Translations under genes and position numbers: made by a program | Notes under the pieces: model-generated | The model's input: only the letters and a program-made list of their open reading frames with translations | Told to the model about the DNA's origin: nothing | Databases searched by the model: none | Part shown: one piece after another, positions 7,281 through 13,258 of the stretch | How the letters are laid out: each line of letters opens with the position of its first letter | Numbering within the stretch: position 1 is the stretch's first letter | NCBI GenBank assembly: GCA_963820825.1 | Contig: CAWGBN010000006.1 | Span: forward strand, 576,001 to 640,000 | Source: Vulcanimicrobiota bacterium | GTDB taxonomy: Bacteria; Vulcanimicrobiota; Vulcanimicrobiia; Vulcanimicrobiales; Vulcanimicrobiaceae | Reading direction: 5' to 3' | DNA: 64,000 nt

Positions 7281-8126
7281 CTACTCGCCGGTTGCAATTG
7301 GGCGCGAGGGGTCGGAGACCCACTCGCTCCACGAGCCGTTGTAGAGACGCGACCCTTCGAGGCCGGCGTACTGCATCGCGAAGTGTCCGGCCGCCGCGGA
7401 GACGCCGGAGCCGCATTGATGCACGATGCGCGTGGGATCGAGGCCCCTGCGCTCGAACTCCGCGCGTAGCTCGGCGCGTGACTTCAGTCGTCCGTCGGGC
7501 GCGAAGTTCTCCTTGAACCAGCGGTTGAGCGCACCCGGAATGTGTCCCGCGACGGGATCGATCGGCTCCGTTTCGCCGCTGTAGCGCTCTTTTGCGCGCG
7601 CGTCGAGCAGTTGCATCGCCGGATCGTTGAGATGTTCGCGCACGTAGGCGGCGTCGACCAGATACTCGGGATGCAGGCGGAGCGCAAGATCGCCCGCGCG
7701 CACGGGCTGCGGCGGCGCGGTGCTGACGGGATGACCGGTGAGATTCCACGCGGTGAATCCGCCGTCGAGTACCGCAACCGCATCGTGACCGATCCAGCGC
7801 GTGAGAAACCAGAAGCGCGGCGCGAACATGTCGCCACCTCCATCGTAGGCGACGATCTGCGTTGCGTTACCGACGCCGCACGCGCGCAAGAAGTCCGCGA
7901 ACACCTCCGGTTGCGGTAACGGATGGCGCCCGTTGCTCCCGGTCTTCGTTCCCGCTAAGTCGTGCTCGAGGTCGGCGAAGAATGCGCCGGGAACGTGCGA
8001 CTCCTCGTAGAGCCGCCGGCCGAGTGCGAAATCGGCGAGCGAGTGGCGGCAATCGAAGACGACGAGATCCGGCGCGCCGAGCCGCTCGTAGAGGTCCTCG
8101 GCCGAGATGATCGTCGTAAAGCTCAC
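7281..8126 (-). CDS. sseA: Thiosulfate/3-mercaptopyruvate sulfurtransferase (tandem rhodanese)
   Basis: HVPGA, GRHPLP, GHIPGA, CGSGVSA, LYNGSWSEW. Confidence 0.9.
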   Translation of the reverse strand: MSFTTIISAEDLYERLGAPDLVVFDCRHSLADFALGRRLYEESHVPGAFFADLEHDLAGTKTGSNGRHPLPQPEVFADFLRACGVGNATQIVAYDGGGDMFAPRFWFLTRWIGHDAVAVLDGGFTAWNLTGHPVSTAPPQPVRAGDLALRLHPEYLVDAAYVREHLNDPAMQLLDARAKERYSGETEPIDPVAGHIPGALNRWFKENFAPDGRLKSRAELRAEFERRGLDPTRIVHQCGSGVSAAAGHFAMQYAGLEGSRLYNGSWSEWVSDPSRPIATGE

Positions 8127-8512
8127 CGGAGGTTGATGATGGTTTTCGCGCCGTCCTTCGACTCCGCGCCTTCGGCGCTACGCTCGGGATGACTCGAATC
8201 GCCGAACGCTTCTTGTAGCGTGGTTTGCAGTTCGCCGCTCTCGGCCATCGGGCCGAGAATGTCGGTATCGCCGTAGAAGGAGCCTTTGATGAAGACCTTC
8301 GGCAGCGTCGGCCAGTTCGTCATCGCGGCGAGCGCTTCGCGCTTGGGCATGTTCTCCAGCACGTCGACGACTTCGAACGGATAGCCGAAACGATTGAAAA
8401 ACTCGATCGTCTCGAGCGTGAAGCCGCAGCGCGGCGCGGTCTTGGTGCCCTTTCCGTAGACGAGAATCGTGTTCTCGGCGATTTCGCGCTCGATCTCTTC
8501 TTGAAAATCCAT
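8123..8512 (-). CDS. grxD: Monothiol glutaredoxin (Grx4 family) with repeat-derived C-terminal insert
   Basis: KGT..PRCGFT and WPTLPKVFI; adjacent to bolA. Confidence 0.85.
   Translation of the reverse strand: MDFQEEIEREIAENTILVYGKGTKTAPRCGFTLETIEFFNRFGYPFEVVDVLENMPKREALAAMTNWPTLPKVFIKGSFYGDTDILGPMAESGELQTTLQEAFGDSSHPERSAEGAESKDGAKTIINLR
8153..8193. repeat. Short palindromic repeat inside grxD 3' end
   Basis: GTCCTTCGACTCCGCGCCTTCGGCGCTACGCTCGGGATGAC with a GCGCC-TTC-GGCGC hairpin; encodes SHPERSAEGAESKD. Confidence 0.55.
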
Positions 8513-8516
8513 TTCG

Positions 8517-8753
8517 TTAGCCCTCCGCAACGATTGTTTTGAGTTCGACGGCGTGAACGCGGCCGTCTTTGAGTGCCTCTTTGAGCGCGCCGTAGACCAG
8601 CTGGTGCTGCTCGATCAGACTCTTCCCCCGAAATTGCTTAGAACGTACCGTCACATTGAAATGGTCCATCGTTCCGGTGCGATCGACGATGCGGACCTCC
8701 GCATCCGGAAGACCGGCCCGGATCAAGTCGGTGAGCGCCGCATCTCCGATCAC
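8517..8753 (-). CDS. BolA/IbaG family protein
   Basis: DHFNVTVRS..F.GKSLIEQHQLVY..VHAVELKT. Confidence 0.88.
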   Translation of the reverse strand: MIGDAALTDLIRAGLPDAEVRIVDRTGTMDHFNVTVRSKQFRGKSLIEQHQLVYGALKEALKDGRVHAVELKTIVAEG

Positions 8754-9004
8754 GAACGCAGCCGGGGCGAACCGGCCTTGAGCGCCTCGGCCAGACCGCG
8801 CGCTTCGCCGAGCGTCTCGGGAAGGCGAGTCGCGCCGCGAGAGAGCGCCGCCGTGACCCCGCTTGCGAGGACGACGCCGGTAACGCCGAGCAAGACCGCG
8901 GGAATTCCGCTGGCCTTTAACGGTCCGATCTCGATCGTGAAGGTGCGCTGTACGCGCGCGAGACCGCGAAAGAACGCGCGCAGGGAACGGCCGGGGGTAT
9001 TCAT
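8750..9004 (-). CDS. Small hypothetical membrane protein
   Basis: ATG start, one hydrophobic segment, 4-bp overlap with bolA. Confidence 0.55.
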   Translation of the reverse strand: MNTPGRSLRAFFRGLARVQRTFTIEIGPLKASGIPAVLLGVTGVVLASGVTAALSRGATRLPETLGEARGLAEALKAGSPRLRS

Positions 9005-9136
9005 CGTCCGCGTTCTTACGTCGCGGCCTTGGGGAAGGCCTGGCCCGAGCCGCACTGAAGCGAGCCGCCACCAACCCGCTGTTTTGGCGCGCTCTCGCGA
9101 GGCGCGGGAGCCGAAAGGCCCGAATGCGCGCATGAA

Positions 9137-10144
9137 GTGACCGGCGTTTCTCGTTCGCTCCTCGCATTGGTAATCGCGGCGGCCGCGGCCGCGGCCGTGG
9201 TCGCGCACGGGACGATCGACGTTATCGCCGATTTTTTGGTCGCGCACGCAAGCTACGACGACGTTTCCAGCCACGACTCGCGCGGGCTGGTCGTTACGAT
9301 CGCCGCTCTGTTCGCCGGTGTCGTTGCCTTGCATGGCCTGCGGCTCTGCTGCGACGTGGCGGCCAATCGAACGCTTGCGTCGATGCGGGCGCCGAGCTGG
9401 CGGAGCGCACCCTTCTTCGTCGGTGCGACGATGCTGCTCGCATCGGTGATCGTCCCTTTGATGGAGGTATTCGACTCGCGATTGGCCGGTACGACGGTGA
9501 CGGACCTCGACGACGCGTTCGGCGGATCCGTGCTCCTCGGCCTGGTCACGACGCTCGCATGCGCAGCCGTCACCGCGATCGCAGTGTTCGCATTGGCGCG
9601 CTGGATTCTCTCGCATCGAGAGCGTATCATAGCCGCGATCGCCGGGATTACTCGCTCCCGTTCGCAAGCGCTTACCGGCCTTCGGCGCTCGCGCACCCTC
9701 GCCGATGCTCCAATCTGCCCGCGCAGGCTTTCCGCACTGCGGCGCGGTAAGCGCGCCCCTCCCCGTCAAGCCCTTCGCCACCCACAAACACTCGATACAC
9801 ATTGCGAGGGCAGATATGCTTCCTATGCTTATTGCGGCGTGCTGCATGATCGGCGGCACGGTCCAGACGCCCGGCGGCGCGCCGATTGCTCACGCGCAGC
9901 TCTCGCTGCGCGGTCCGGCCACCACCCAGACGACGACCGACGACAAAGGCGAGTTCTCGGTTCAGATTCCTCCGGGGCGATACGATCTCGCCGTCGTCGC
10001 GCGCGGATACTTGACGGTGACCGTCAACACCGGCGAGGTCACCGACGGTTCGCGAATCCGGGTCGTGCTCGAGCCGAGCGATACGCCGAAGCTGCGTACC
10101 ATCGGACAAGTCACGGTGAACGGCGGATTTACGCTCGATCGTAA
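9137..10144 (+). CDS. Membrane leader protein with RAPP motif (real coding part probably 9137-~9770)
   Basis: About four hydrophobic segments with His/Cys residues, then RRGKRAPP at 9740-9763; the frame runs on into the receptor gene. Confidence 0.6.
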   Translation: MTGVSRSLLALVIAAAAAAAVVAHGTIDVIADFLVAHASYDDVSSHDSRGLVVTIAALFAGVVALHGLRLCCDVAANRTLASMRAPSWRSAPFFVGATMLLASVIVPLMEVFDSRLAGTTVTDLDDAFGGSVLLGLVTTLACAAVTAIAVFALARWILSHRERIIAAIAGITRSRSQALTGLRRSRTLADAPICPRRLSALRRGKRAPPRQALRHPQTLDTHCEGRYASYAYCGVLHDRRHGPDARRRADCSRAALAARSGHHPDDDRRQRRVLGSDSSGAIRSRRRRARILDGDRQHRRGHRRFANPGRARAERYAEAAYHRTSHGERRIYARS

Positions 10145-12248
10145 CGTGATCCCGGAGATGGACGTCTCACGCGCGCAGATGGATGCGCTCGGATACACGC
10201 AAGTGCTCGAGGCACTCCAGCAAGTGCCGTCGGTGGTCATTCAGCGGCCCGATGCGGGTGCGCCGACGACGCCCGCGGTCGTCTCGCTGCGTGGGCCCGA
10301 TCCGTCGGAGGCAATGGTCACGCTCGACGGCCAGCAGCTCAACGACGGAAATACCGGCGATATCGATCTCTCGCAGTTTGCGGTGCCGGCATTCAATAGC
10401 GTCAACGTCACCGAGGGTCTCGGGCCAACCGACTTGGAGGGAAGCAATACGTTCGGCGGCGCGGTCAACTTCGTCTCGCTGCGTCCGACGCAAGAGGATC
10501 ACTTCAGCTTATCCACCTCGGCGGGCTCCTACGGAGCGACCCAGACTTGGCTCAACGCGACCGGCGCGATCGGAAAGCTCGGCTACGCCATCGCCGGCGA
10601 CAACTTCCAGCAGATCGGCCAAGTAAACGAGTACGATTGGATCGTTCCTTCGAACAATTTGCCGACCTACTGCGGCCCGCAGACCAAGACGAAGACGCCG
10701 AACTGTCCCTTCCAAGCGCACCTCGGTTCGACGATTTCGGCGCGACTGGGACTCGTCAACCTCGATTACAATTTCTCCCAGCGCTCGGACGTCGGTTTTC
10801 GCGTCTTCACGCTCGGGGACAATCGCGACGAATCGAGCGCATTGAACGGAATCGCCGGGAATCCGACCTGCGTCTTTAGCGGACCGGGGCCGGGCTGCGC
10901 CTTCGGACCGTCGGGATCGGGGTCGCAGAACGAGGTGGCAAATCCCGCCTACGGCGACCACATCGGCCAGGGCAGCGCGAACTTCGCGCAGAGCATCCGC
11001 GCCTACGACGGCTACTCGCGAACGCCGTTGGGCTCCGGCATTCTTCTAGCCGACTTTTTTGCGACCGACAACAACATCGATTTCCAAGGCGGTGCGATTT
11101 CGCCGTACGACGTCTCGCACGTCGACACGCGCTACAGCGAGGGACTTTCGTGGGGCAGGACGTTCGATGGAGGCGAGTTCGCATTCGGCGGATATCTGCG
11201 CCAAGAGTCGCTCGCCGGGCTGGGCATCACCGAGACGCTCGGGCAGGGCATTCAATCGTACTTCTTCCGCGGCGCTCAACAGTTCGGAAACGTCAGGCTC
11301 TCCGGCGGACTCTACGATTCGCAGTACTCGACCTTCGGCAACACGCTGAACTGGCGGTTGGGATTGAGCGACGATCTCGGCTCCTCGAGCGTGGTGCGCT
11401 TCTCGGCCGGGACCGGCTTTCGGGCGCCGTTGCTCGCCGAACGCTACTTCTTCCCGCCCGTTACCGTAAACGGAAAGACCCAGCCGAATCCCGCGCTCGG
11501 GCCGCCCGATCAGAACTGCGTCGTTCCCAACGGAAATCCCGACGAACTGCCGGAGCACGCGACCGAGTACGAGCTCAGCTTCTCGCATCTCTTCTCGAGC
11601 CGTTCGAGTCTCGACGTGTCGATCTATCGCTCGAACCTGCGCGATACGATCGAGAACTATTACCCGGGCGGCGGCGCGCAGAGCTTCTGCGGAACCGCGC
11701 TCGGCTTTGCTTACGAGATTCCGATCAACATCGGCAACGCCGTCTACGAAGGCGCCGAAGCGCGATACAAGCAGACGTTTCCGAGCTTGAACCTCACGAC
11801 GACGCTCTCGTACGGGCTCAACGTCGCCTATCCGTACGCGCTCGGCCCGTGGGTGTCCAACCCCACGTCGGGCGGCACGCTCGTCGACAACCAGCAGTTC
11901 CTCGGCGTACCGCAACAGCAAGGTTCGGCCGTCTTCACCTGGGCGGAGAACGGCTGGCACGCATCCACCGCGTTTACGTTTGCGGGTAGAAATAACACGC
12001 TCTCGCAGCCGCCCTATACGCTCATCGACGGCGCCATCGGCAGGAACTTCGGCCGGCTCGACTTCACGATCGCGGCGACGAACATCTTTAACGCCGCCTC
12101 GGGTCCGTTCACGCTCTACGATGCCGGAGTTCCCTATCGCGGGCTCTACTCCGGCCCGAACAACACGTCGTACCTGGCCAATACGCCGACCGACGCGCTC
12201 TTCATCGAGCCGGCTTCGGTCAAGTTCATCGTAACCTTCCACCAGTGA
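9816..12248 (+). CDS. TonB-dependent receptor with N-terminal carboxypeptidase-regulatory-like domain
   Basis: TTTDDKGEF..PPGRY domain, plug motif SLRG..GGAVNF, GTGFRAP, ATNIFN; SD GAGGG before ATG 9816. Confidence 0.88.
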   Translation: MLPMLIAACCMIGGTVQTPGGAPIAHAQLSLRGPATTQTTTDDKGEFSVQIPPGRYDLAVVARGYLTVTVNTGEVTDGSRIRVVLEPSDTPKLRTIGQVTVNGGFTLDRNVIPEMDVSRAQMDALGYTQVLEALQQVPSVVIQRPDAGAPTTPAVVSLRGPDPSEAMVTLDGQQLNDGNTGDIDLSQFAVPAFNSVNVTEGLGPTDLEGSNTFGGAVNFVSLRPTQEDHFSLSTSAGSYGATQTWLNATGAIGKLGYAIAGDNFQQIGQVNEYDWIVPSNNLPTYCGPQTKTKTPNCPFQAHLGSTISARLGLVNLDYNFSQRSDVGFRVFTLGDNRDESSALNGIAGNPTCVFSGPGPGCAFGPSGSGSQNEVANPAYGDHIGQGSANFAQSIRAYDGYSRTPLGSGILLADFFATDNNIDFQGGAISPYDVSHVDTRYSEGLSWGRTFDGGEFAFGGYLRQESLAGLGITETLGQGIQSYFFRGAQQFGNVRLSGGLYDSQYSTFGNTLNWRLGLSDDLGSSSVVRFSAGTGFRAPLLAERYFFPPVTVNGKTQPNPALGPPDQNCVVPNGNPDELPEHATEYELSFSHLFSSRSSLDVSIYRSNLRDTIENYYPGGGAQSFCGTALGFAYEIPINIGNAVYEGAEARYKQTFPSLNLTTTLSYGLNVAYPYALGPWVSNPTSGGTLVDNQQFLGVPQQQGSAVFTWAENGWHASTAFTFAGRNNTLSQPPYTLIDGAIGRNFGRLDFTIAATNIFNAASGPFTLYDAGVPYRGLYSGPNNTSYLANTPTDALFIEPASVKFIVTFHQ

Positions 12249-13258
12249 CGGAGGTGATGCGGGCCCTTCGTCTCCACGAGATCGGCGGCCCCGCAAACCT
12301 TCGCGTCGATGCGGTCGGCATTCCCGAGATTCGCGCCGACGAAGCGCTGGTGCGGGTGCGGGCAGCCGCGCTCAATCGCCGCGATCTCTTCATCACGCAA
12401 GGGCTATATCCGAAGATCCGCCTGCCGGTCACCCTTGGATCCGACGGCGCGGGTGAAGTCGCCGCGCTCGGCTCGGTCGTCGCCGATCTCGAAGTCGGCG
12501 ACGAGGTCGTGATCGATCCGATGCTGGGGTGGGGCGACGACCCGCGCGTCTGGGATGCGGGCAACGCGACGATTCTCGGCATGCCGCGCGAGGGAACCTT
12601 TGCTCAGTACGTCGCGGTGCCGCTCGACAACGTCTATCGTAAGCCGAAGCCGCTCTCGATGGAGGAGGCCGCGGCTATACCGCTCGCCGGCTTGACGGCG
12701 TACCGCGCGCTCTTCACCCGCGGCGCGGTGAAGCCGGGGGAGACGGTGCTCGTCACCGGTGTCGGCGGCGGCGTTCAGACCTTCGTGCTGCTCTTCGCCA
12801 AGCACGCAGGCGCACGCGCGATCGTTACCTCGAGCAGCGATGCAAAACTCGAGCGCGCGCGCGCACTCGGGGCCGACCTCGCGATCAACTATGCGACGAA
12901 CCCTGAGTGGACGACGCTGCTGCGCTCGACCGGACCGGTCGACCTCGTCGTCGACTCGTCGGGCGGCGAGACGTTACGCAAGGCGCTCGACATCGTACGT
13001 CCCGGCGGACGGATCGTCGTCTACGGCGGCACGAACGGCGACGCCACGATCAAACCCTTTCCGCTCTTCTGGAAACACGTAACGATCCTCGGCACGTCGA
13101 TGGGGAGTCCGCAAGACTTCGCCGCGATGCTCGAGCTATTCGAGGATGGGCTGCGGCCGGCCGTCGACCACGTCTTTGCGCTCGACGATTCCGTTGCCGC
13201 GTTCGAGCGTTTGGCCGCGGCGGATCAGTTCGGGAAGATCGTCGTTCGGACCGGCTAG
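12245..13258 (+). CDS. Zinc-binding dehydrogenase/NADPH:quinone oxidoreductase (MDR family)
   Basis: AAALNRRD, LGSDGAGEV, VLVTGVGGGV, QFGKIVV. Confidence 0.88.
   Translation: MTEVMRALRLHEIGGPANLRVDAVGIPEIRADEALVRVRAAALNRRDLFITQGLYPKIRLPVTLGSDGAGEVAALGSVVADLEVGDEVVIDPMLGWGDDPRVWDAGNATILGMPREGTFAQYVAVPLDNVYRKPKPLSMEEAAAIPLAGLTAYRALFTRGAVKPGETVLVTGVGGGVQTFVLLFAKHAGARAIVTSSSDAKLERARALGADLAINYATNPEWTTLLRSTGPVDLVVDSSGGETLRKALDIVRPGGRIVVYGGTNGDATIKPFPLFWKHVTILGTSMGSPQDFAAMLELFEDGLRPAVDHVFALDDSVAAFERLAAADQFGKIVVRTG

Follow-up and report, generated by a model that had tools for sequence, protein, structure and literature searches.

A lineage-restricted family of membrane leader proteins ending in R-[A/G]-P-P and its predicted role in unmasking the ribosome-binding sites of TonB-dependent receptor genes

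In the MifM-yidC2 system of Bacillus subtilis and the SecM-secA system of Escherichia coli, a nascent chain arrests translation near its C terminus, and the stalled ribosome opens a stem-loop in which the Shine-Dalgarno (SD) sequence of the next gene is sequestered. RAPP and RGPP are both experimentally established arrest cores that resist elongation factor P and are avoided in proteomes (PMC12992588; EMBO J 2025), and arrest peptides carrying them were recently proposed in that study to regulate far more than the secretion machinery. In its survey of 52,895 genomes, RAPP/RGPP upstream open reading frames (uORFs) were strongly enriched upstream of TonB-dependent receptors, which are the commonest downstream class in the source table (5450 RAPP versus 722 AAPP uORFs). 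The same study describes four-transmembrane RAPP/RGPP peptides of Streptomyces lividans that stall, some of them with conserved His/Met sites proposed to bind metal, and its discussion raises the question of how arrest ends outside the Sec/YidC systems. The only worked-out case for a TonB-dependent transporter is CruR (Bp2923; DUF2946, PF11162), the leader of bfrG in Bordetella pertussis, which provides a precedent for metal-released RAPP arrest; lengthening its CXXC-to-RAPP spacing by five residues impaired regulation (PMC9426467). Here, we analyze a leader open reading frame (ORF) ending its conserved part in RAPP, together with the TonB-dependent receptor gene downstream, in a 64,000-nucleotide stretch of a Vulcanimicrobiota bacterium (i.e., the window; GenBank assembly GCA_963820825.1, contig CAWGBN010000006.1; G000:C6:576001-640000; 64% G+C).

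On comparative grounds, the locus is a conserved, lineage-restricted regulatory module that belongs to the RAPP/RGPP arrest leaders. Comparison gives strong evidence for an arrest motif joined to an anti-SD sequence at the stall site and to a receptor gene, in the form of a gene family, an invariant motif, constant spacings, a link to receptors, and predicted pairing specific to one location. From this evidence we infer arrest, unmasking, the direction of control, and a ligand. With slightly better than even confidence, we read the module as an arrest-peptide leader that unmasks the ribosome-binding site of the receptor gene and whose release is set by its four-helix domain. The features of the locus are as follows.

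9137 to 9763, forward strand: leader/sensor ORF up to the putative arrest site; 209 aa, with a predicted four-helix membrane domain and an Arg-rich, predicted cytoplasmic tail ending in K-R-A-P-P (third-position GC signal, relatives)
9143 to 9613, forward strand: four predicted transmembrane helices, residues 3 to 35, 49 to 76, 88 to 116, and 132 to 159 (AlphaFold2, charge counts)
9749 to 9763, forward strand: candidate K-R-A-P-P arrest motif, with RAPP at 9752 to 9763 (motif conservation; stall geometry borrowed from the cryo-electron microscopy of ApdA/ApdP, PMC10951233)
9764 to 10144, forward strand: 126-codon read-through tail, unconserved; here the leader frame runs over the receptor gene, which uses a different frame (drop in third-position GC; conservation lost after PP; varying stop positions)
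9765 to 9778, forward strand: 5' arm of the predicted hairpin, an anti-SD (GTC..GCCCT.TCGC), with GCCCTTCGC at 9770 to 9778 (minimum-free-energy fold)
9779 to 9803, forward strand: hairpin loop, 25 nt, C/A-rich and almost G-free (24 sequences)
9804 to 9815, forward strand: 3' arm of the predicted hairpin, with GCGAGGGC at 9804 to 9811 containing the receptor SD GAGGG, plus GAT next to the start codon
9816 to 12248, forward strand: TonB-dependent receptor, 810 aa, with CarboxypepD_reg (PF13620; 3.1e-13), Plug (PF07715; 8.3e-11), and beta-barrel (PF00593; 1.4e-19) domains

As read, the leader ORF begins at a GTG and runs from 9137 to 10144 (335 aa), with its first in-frame stop at 10142 to 10144 and an overlap of ~330 nt with the receptor ORF (9816 to 12248). 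An earlier note on this DNA had described the ORF, its RAPP, the hairpin arms, and the SD and ATG of the receptor; all of these coordinates were exact on re-reading, and the leader frame does run over the receptor to 10144 without a stop after RAPP. Since high-GC genomes yield long spurious ORFs, the coding signal was checked by third-position GC (GC3). The GC3 of the leader frame was 0.77 to 0.87 from 9140 to ~9620 and 0.47 to 0.67 thereafter, while that of the receptor frame climbed. Thus, the coding signal stops close to RAPP: the leader ORF is a genuine gene to about this motif, and the 126-codon tail is not, being free of protein selection.

The leader belongs to a small family, as judged from sequence searches. 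No Pfam family matched the 335-aa ORF at an E value of ≤0.01, and no NCBIfam family matched residues 1 to 209, while a profile built from 19 genomic copies matched 233 clusters (E ≤ 0.001) among 1.84 billion representatives. We collected 215 relatives, 70 from an index of 5.8 billion proteins (170 to 334 aa) and 145 by profile. An alignment of 23 sequences, the most distant at 30% identity, shows no variation at R206, P208, and P209, only A or G at position 207, and almost no variation at K205; across the 19 genomic loci, K/R-R-[A/G]-P-P is invariant. Conservation of the protein vanishes after PP, and the stop codon drifts from 1 to 125 residues downstream in the alignment and the 215 relatives. 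The earlier note had called for conservation of RAPP in homologs, and R[AG]PP was indeed found by regular expression in 197 of the 215 relatives (RAPP in 106 and RGPP in 91); of the 18 misses, 4 show the motif by eye (P0087, P0185, P0210, and P0215), and the remaining 14, which are without it, resemble fragments or chimeras by eye. The invariant GGS lies 76 to 79 residues before the R of the motif in 192 of the 197 motif-bearing relatives, and the distance from the start codon to PP is 205 to 210 aa in the 19 loci. The tail past PP comprises 3 to 5 residues in 77 of the 197 relatives and ≤11 in 127. A rough tally of 1687 putative coding ORFs in this genome gave 12 occurrences of RAPP and 3 of RGPP (versus 33 for AAPP and 14 for AGPP), and the conservation of the motif in the leader goes beyond chance at the sequence level. 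Another R[AG]PP candidate stall ORF in the genome (C2:139104-139529) lies in an apparent noncoding frame with no gene downstream and was dropped.

For the comparison of whole loci, 70 loci were reduced to 60 unique ones by removing 8 exact duplicates, L019 (no motif; frame apparently disrupted), and L057 (pattern not matched). The stop codon follows PP within 10 codons in 44 of the 60 loci, and long tails are found in the window's clade and a few others. Eight loci of this clade (L001 to L007 and L066) have some of the longest leader tails (79 to 126 codons), and other clades also have long ones.

The distance between the motif and the receptor gene is also nearly constant. It is 52 nt from PP to the receptor start in the window, and from the end of PP to the next SD-bearing start codon it is 48 to 60 nt in 54 of the 60 loci. 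All 37 downstream ORFs searched against Pfam (18/18 and 19/19), as well as the window's own, carry CarboxypepD_reg and Plug domains, with the barrel where the locus is long enough. The position of the leader in front of a TonB receptor, as described for this locus in the earlier note, therefore recurs in 37/37 tested neighbors. The downstream ORFs of L026 to L050, which lie outside these 37, have N termini that look alike by eye. NCBIfam returned generic TonB receptor models only for the window's receptor, all far under equivalog cutoffs, and a sequence search of the PDB returned only weak plug matches, led by an unnamed TonB-linked receptor (2.6e-08), with CntO and FoxA at about 1e-4. Thus, no substrate can be assigned to it.

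The short spacer is predicted to fold over the ribosome-binding site. The minimum-free-energy fold in the window is a hairpin with GCCCT/AGGGC, a bulged T, CGC/GCG, and outer GTC/GAT pairs, and the SD GAGGG (9807 to 9811) ends 5 nt before the ATG at 9816. A ribosome footprint ends at +15/16 from the first P-site base, and the 5' arm bases 9770 to 9775 fall within this expected 3' edge of the stalled ribosome. For each of the 60 loci, the folded segment began 30 nt ahead of the R codon and extended 12 nt beyond the start codon, with dinucleotide-shuffled upstream sequences as controls. Pairing of the SD with the segment from -21 to +12 relative to the end of PP (i.e., roughly the stretch that a ribosome would cover when its P site holds the first Pro codon) has a mean predicted probability of 0.78, compared with 0.20 in the shuffles, and the value is ≥0.7 in 43 of the 60 loci. 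The anti-SD position varies by clade: it is formed by the Pro-Pro codons themselves in many RGPP clades (CCUCCU; -1 to -5), lies at +3 to +7 in others, and lies at +8 to +12 in the window's, where it is part of the hairpin of the earlier note. CCT serves as the first Pro codon in 37 of the 60 loci and accounts for 6.2% of 1925 Pro codons in flanking genes, a bias that fits selection for CCUCC at the RNA level. When the footprint was masked in silico (-13 to +15 from the first P-site base), the mean ensemble cost of opening the region from SD to start was 7.0 kcal/mol, compared with 10.9 kcal/mol for native and 8.0 kcal/mol for shuffled upstream sequences; native minus masked cost is ≥5 in 19 of the 60 loci.

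Conservation of the hairpin in homologs was the other check set by the earlier note, and it gave a concordant result, in the stall-site pairing across the 60 loci (0.78 versus 0.20) and within the window's clade. In an alignment of 24 distinct clade sequences from genomes and metagenome contigs, conservation reaches 93% in the 5' arm and 96% in the 3' arm, compared with 83% in the loop and 53% in the base triplet that follows PP. The 5' arm keeps its sequence in a region where there is no constraint on the protein frame. Standard pairs occupy 94.3% of 264 pair cells, compared with 34 to 51% when partner columns are slid. The loop contains 235 C, 212 A, 131 T, and 23 G among 601 bases in a genome of 64% G+C, and is either kept unstructured or a short patch resembling a Rho-loading site. 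Just upstream of the Pro codons (9741 to 9757 and equivalents in other clades), the codons of a conserved A-L (GCGCU) and of K-R (AGCGC) are complementary and form a small hairpin in most predicted folds; the amino acid conservation there could partly be RNA-level. No terminator-like hairpin occurs between 9763 and 9816. A scan of 8500 to 12600 found no promoter-like sites and two terminator-like ones, both inside the receptor gene and at a chance-level number.

The N-terminal domain is conserved as well: over 19 sequences, column identity averages 64%, and 37 columns are invariant. The AlphaFold2 model (19-sequence alignment; mean predicted local distance difference test score, 73.8) contains four long helices, an extra helix at residues 161 to 179, and a disordered tail. 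Mean K+R/D+E counts over the 19 sequences are 0.0/2.6 in loop 1, 3.2/1.6 in loop 2, 1.2/4.2 in loop 3, and 12.2/2.8 in the C-terminal tail. This pattern matches the positive-inside rule for a protein with both termini in the cytoplasm, in which loops 1 and 3 would be acidic and periplasmic, and loop 2 and the tail basic and cytoplasmic. The model and the charge pattern thus agree with the multi-transmembrane leader described in the earlier note. Invariant residues in the 19 loci include H24, D28, D32, Y40, D41, H46, S48, R49, C71, P107, M109, E110, D113, F128, G129, G130, S131, G135, C142, W156, R161, I164, R206, P208, and P209. The outer half of helix 1 holds H24, D28, and D32; loop 1 holds Y40, D41, H46, S48, and R49; the outer end of helix 3 holds P107, M109, E110, and D113; and the start of helix 4 holds F128, G129, G130, and S131. 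The invariant acidic, His, and Met positions are thus predicted in or beside periplasmic loops, with the arrest tail in the cytoplasm, and the invariant polar residues may form one site, judging from their positions along the helices. The leader has four Cys residues (C70, C71, C142, and C194) and no CXXC, as the earlier note had stated. A Foldseek search of the model against the PDB returned nothing at E ≤ 0.001, its matches being generic helical bundles only, and an ESM Atlas search returned only unnamed clusters without a Pfam family.

A metal is hinted at by the His/Asp/Glu/Met signature of these invariant residues. Six of the 60 receptors (L010, L015, L034, L043, L068, and L069) have a His/Asp tract with at least 4 His right after the signal peptide, and shorter HD tracts were seen by eye in five more (L029, L032, L037, L039, and L044). 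The tracts are HDDHDRDH-like, with up to 7 His within the first 60 residues, and their sequence suggests metal handling.

These observations are compatible with the following mechanism. The ORF from 9137 to 9763 would encode a polytopic inner-membrane leader/sensor protein. While the site is free of ribosomes, the SD (9807 to 9811) and the bases up to the start codon would pair with 9765 to 9778, and receptor translation would be low. A ribosome stalled at 9758 to 9763 would cover or unwind the 5' arm, making the ribosome-binding site cheaper to open, and the receptor would be translated. The last ~35 to 40 residues of a nascent chain occupy the exit tunnel, so that at arrest all four helices would be outside and able to sit in the membrane. 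The four-helix domain, in which helix 4 starts a constant 76 to 79 residues before the motif, may then end the stall. The favored signal would be a ligand, probably a metal ion, on the periplasm-facing cluster of invariant His/Asp/Glu/Met residues; folding on the ligand would pull the nascent chain, translation would resume, and the hairpin would re-form, giving negative feedback on uptake.

Several points weigh against this reading. The SD is paired somewhere in shuffled sequences too (mean probability, 0.92 native and 0.78 shuffled over the 60 loci), so overall pairing says little and only the location of the partner discriminates; the stall-site pairing is below 0.7 in 17 loci. The earlier note had proposed that a stalled ribosome masks the anti-SD. 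Its geometry held, the partner of the SD lying inside the footprint, whereas the predicted effect is moderate in energy: with the footprint masked, mean SD pairing falls from 0.92 to 0.75 only, weaker partners being found, and 0 of the 60 loci fall by ≥0.5. The native opening cost exceeds the shuffled mean plus 2 standard deviations in just 22 loci, and the difference of 3 to 4 kcal/mol would be biologically meaningful yet modest and model-dependent, with no clean on/off. The 60 loci are kin, and counts over them overstate independent support; six of them have other gaps between PP and the receptor start (68, 74, 84, 91, 101, and 103 nt). Covariation in the window's clade amounts to one double-sided change, a score reached by 119 of 500 shuffles. 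With so little variation, the pairing within the clade reflects conservation and is no structural proof, and the conservation of the 3' arm could come from the SD alone. The 126-codon read-through tail in the window is atypical for arrest peptides. As for release, helix 4 ends ~50 residues ahead of the peptidyl-transferase center at arrest, which reportedly exceeds the usual insertion-force peaks in force-profile work with SecM fusions; a simple release by insertion pull is therefore not obviously well timed. A metal as the ligand is a guess; the receptor in the window lacks a His tract, and no specific receptor subfamily matched it.

Other explanations account for parts of the same evidence. 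In a CruR-like control of transcription, which we consider quite unlikely here, the stalled ribosome would block Rho, and release would expose a Rho-loading site, ending transcription before the receptor. Rho-loading sites are typically C-rich and G-poor, as is the 25-nt hairpin loop (G at 23 of 601 bases in 24 sequences), but this stretch is far under the ~70 to 80 nt that Rho usually needs. CruR, the only experimentally studied RAPP leader of a TonB-dependent transporter, does work through Rho; its spacer in B. pertussis, however, is 162 bp (PMC9426467), compared with 52 nt here and 48 to 60 nt in 54 of the 60 loci. Translational unmasking, and not Rho, accounts for the pairing of the SD with the stall site and for the CCT bias; the two modes are not mutually exclusive, and the G-poor loop leaves some room for Rho. 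A serious alternative, although equally improbable in our estimate, is that the leader is a monitoring substrate in which Sec/YidC- or proton-motive-force-dependent insertion of helix 3, the acidic loop, and helix 4 frees the arrest, so that receptor synthesis would be tuned to membrane insertion capacity or energization. TonB-dependent uptake requires the proton-motive force, loop 3 is strongly acidic (mean, 4.2 D+E), and helix 4 begins at a fixed distance of 76 to 79 residues from the motif. The classical membrane- or secretion-targeted arrest peptides (i.e., SecM, MifM, VemP, ApdA/ApdP, and CliM) are all released by engaging Sec/YidC, but the monitoring substrates described are poorly conserved N-terminally, the secDF leader SLIV_07330 being without a conserved motif (PMC12992588). 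In addition, the gene downstream encodes a substrate of the export machinery and no component of it, which offers no obvious feedback logic, and the invariant His/Asp/Glu/Met/Cys positions outnumber the needs of an insertion signal.

It is also conceivable, but highly doubtful, that a constitutive pause couples the receptor to leader translation and tethers the mRNA at the membrane through the inserted nascent chain; the leader may then itself be an inner-membrane partner of the receptor (e.g., in metal binding or transport). The N-terminal domain is indeed conserved like a functional protein (64% identity and 37 invariant columns), and the window's clade, having lost the nearby stop and having receptors with short N termini, could benefit from a tethered mRNA. 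However, RAPP/RGPP is strongly avoided in proteomes except for regulation (PMC12992588), an SD-hiding hairpin would be sensible only with varying occupancy of the stall site, and an export defect from the short receptor N terminus is unsupported here. The least probable explanation, very unlikely in our view, is that there is no arrest; KR[AG]PP would then serve an ordinary four-helix membrane protein in some other way, e.g., in binding or sorting, and the hairpin would be GC-rich structure arising incidentally. The substantial SD pairing in the shuffled controls is in its favor, and stalling depends on the species, the ribosomes of E. coli being refractory to ApdA and several Streptomyces peptides that stall other ribosomes (PMC12992588 and PMC10951233). 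Against it, conservation ends exactly at PP while the stop drifts over 1 to 125 residues, so that the residues past PP do not belong to a functional protein end; the receptor start lies at a fixed distance; the first Pro shows a tenfold enrichment of the rare CCT codon; the partner of the SD is the stall site; and receptors follow in 37/37 tested neighbors.

The reading that we lean toward, ligand-sensitive unmasking by an arrested leader, also has a bolder version, which we regard as unlikely. The leader would then be a co-translational, periplasm-facing metal sensor and, in the window's clade, a membrane tether. Metal on H24/D28/D32/D41/H46/M109/E110/D113 of the ribosome-bound chain would pull off a long-lived RAPP arrest; in the window's clade, with its nearby stop lost and a minimal receptor signal sequence, the arrested complex would tether the receptor's ribosome-binding site beside the translocon, and unreleased complexes would be cleared by ribosome rescue. 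If this were true, it would be the first polytopic membrane protein shown to signal an extracytoplasmic ligand mechanically to the peptidyl-transferase center.

In the searches made, the leader family was found almost only in Eremiobacterota. A single-protein query matched 23 of the 24 other genomes of the genus, often with two matches each. The profile query matched 107 of 301 genomes of the phylum, among them 104 of 206 in the window's family and 2 of 22 in a second family, and none of 72 genomes in 19 other sampled families. Named records are metagenome-assembled genomes (MAGs) labeled Candidatus Cybelea, Eremiobacteraeota, Vulcanimicrobiota, Baltobacteraceae, or Tumulicola; some other labels (Acidoferrum, Verrucomicrobiia, Acidiferrales, and Acidimicrobiaceae) occur on a small number of records and are assumed to reflect the labeling of soil MAGs.

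The same genome carries a second module outside the window, with a leader at C6:524878-525501 and its own receptor, which extends to 528144 (L051). This leader is 42% identical and ends in KRGPP followed by 5 further codons, and pairing is predicted between its Pro codons and the AGGAG of its receptor. A gene listing of its neighborhood (G000:C6:517-533 kb), made without family searches, showed nothing obviously metal-related. Tandem leader-receptor modules, with leaders ~3.3 kb apart on the same strand, occur in six genomes (G001:C97, G003:C69, G006:C11, G008:C27, G023:C46, and G024:C2). In L019 (G024:C2:69443-72943), the frame ceases to align beyond about residue 172 and contains no R[AG]PP, and a partial copy lies 3 kb downstream; L019 is probably a frameshifted or decaying family copy.

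The receptors of the window's clade (L001 to L007 and L066) begin with MLP.L.AACC (9816 to 9860 in the window), with CarboxypepD_reg starting at residue 12, whereas those of other clades have this domain from about residue 31 to 50, behind an ordinary signal peptide with a basic N-region. The N terminus of the former is ~25 residues shorter than those of the paralogues, and its L[IV]AAC is lipobox-like yet has just 8 residues before the Cys. A longer receptor N terminus starting from ATG 9705 or from ATT/ATA near 9795 to 9803 was rejected, since these codons have no SD before them and are unconserved in the clade. The receptor frame is open back to 9705, and a fusion by +1 frameshifting at CCC-C (9761 to 9764) was likewise rejected, since L002 and L003 have CCG as their second Pro codon and the receptor starts in the +1 frame in L001 to L007 (gap, 52) but in the +2 frame in L066 (gap, 53).

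Downstream, a zinc-type alcohol dehydrogenase/quinone oxidoreductase gene (12245 to 13258) starts 4 nt before the receptor stop codon and may be co-transcribed with the receptor. Divergent from the leader, the minus strand from 7281 to 8801 encodes a BolA-like protein (~8520 to 8801; NCBIfam BolA, 1e-06, under its cutoff), a glutaredoxin (CGFT; 8123 to 8530), and a two-domain rhodanese (7281 to 8126). BolA and monothiol glutaredoxin are a classical iron-sulfur/iron-sensing pair.

The family offers a compact test case, combining a conserved polytopic domain with candidate ligand residues, a rigid motif spacing, and a short spacer with an anti-SD at the stall site. The leader marks paralogous receptors, often at least two per genome, as conditionally expressed and probably metal-related. 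As far as the literature was searched, this is the first such regulatory element found for Eremiobacterota, an uncultured soil/peat phylum; full-text searches found no paper that joins Eremiobacterota/Vulcanimicrobiota with arrest peptides.

Compared with the described systems, the leader family has in common with the peptides of PMC12992588 a C-terminal RAPP/RGPP in a membrane-targeted protein of <300 aa, whose gene immediately precedes the regulated one in the same orientation. The window's own ORF (335 aa with its 126-codon tail) falls outside the <300-aa filter of that study, and the name Eremiobacterota is absent from the searched part of its supplement, where the family may be listed unnoticed. 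Almost all of the TonB-class uORF products reported there have a signal sequence, whereas the present family is polytopic; the four-helix peptides of Streptomyces, compared here by description only, precede copper-resistance, thioredoxin, or sigma-factor genes rather than receptor genes. The earlier note had suggested a new sensor type. This part stands in that the leader has no Pfam match or CXXC and is not a CruR/DUF2946 member, and it does not in that RAPP/RGPP leaders before TonB receptors and four-helix RAPP/RGPP arrest peptides are already known (PMC12992588); what is new here is the leader family itself.

CruR and the present leader are both RAPP-ending uORF products before a TonB-dependent transporter, share the proposed logic of ligand-relieved arrest, and keep a fixed distance from sensor to RAPP (45 ± 2 residues from the CXXC of CruR; 76 to 79 from GGS or ~45 from W156/R161/I164 here) (PMC9426467). 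They differ in that the present leader has no PF11162 match and no CXXC, its conserved Cys residues being C71 and C142, which together place it outside the CruR/DUF2946 family. It also has four predicted helices rather than one export signal, 209 rather than 145 aa, a spacer of 52 nt rather than 162 bp, and a predicted structure that hides the SD rather than Rho-dependent termination (PMC9426467). CruR is mostly proteobacterial, whereas the present family is confined to Eremiobacterota in the searches made. CutF of Rhodobacter capsulatus is similar in that translational stalling of a nascent exported protein reports extracytoplasmic copper, although CutF regulates a copper-handling operon and not a TonB receptor (PMC9973294). 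ApdA/ApdP have the same RAPP core, from which stalling is predicted here by analogy, but precede secDF-type genes and show no sequence relationship beyond the motif (PMC7897499 and PMC10951233). Unlike in SecM, MifM, and VemP, the downstream gene is a receptor and no Sec/YidC component; MifM has a different arrest core, and MifM and SecM have a single signal/transmembrane segment in place of a conserved polytopic domain. MifM and SecM nevertheless are the mechanistic template for the leader, which is likewise membrane-targeted and has a predicted stem-loop over the SD, although the computed effect of a stalled ribosome on this stem-loop is moderate and leaves residual pairing. The short spacer and the anti-SD at the stall site point to translational unmasking as in MifM and SecM rather than to Rho-dependent termination of the CruR type.

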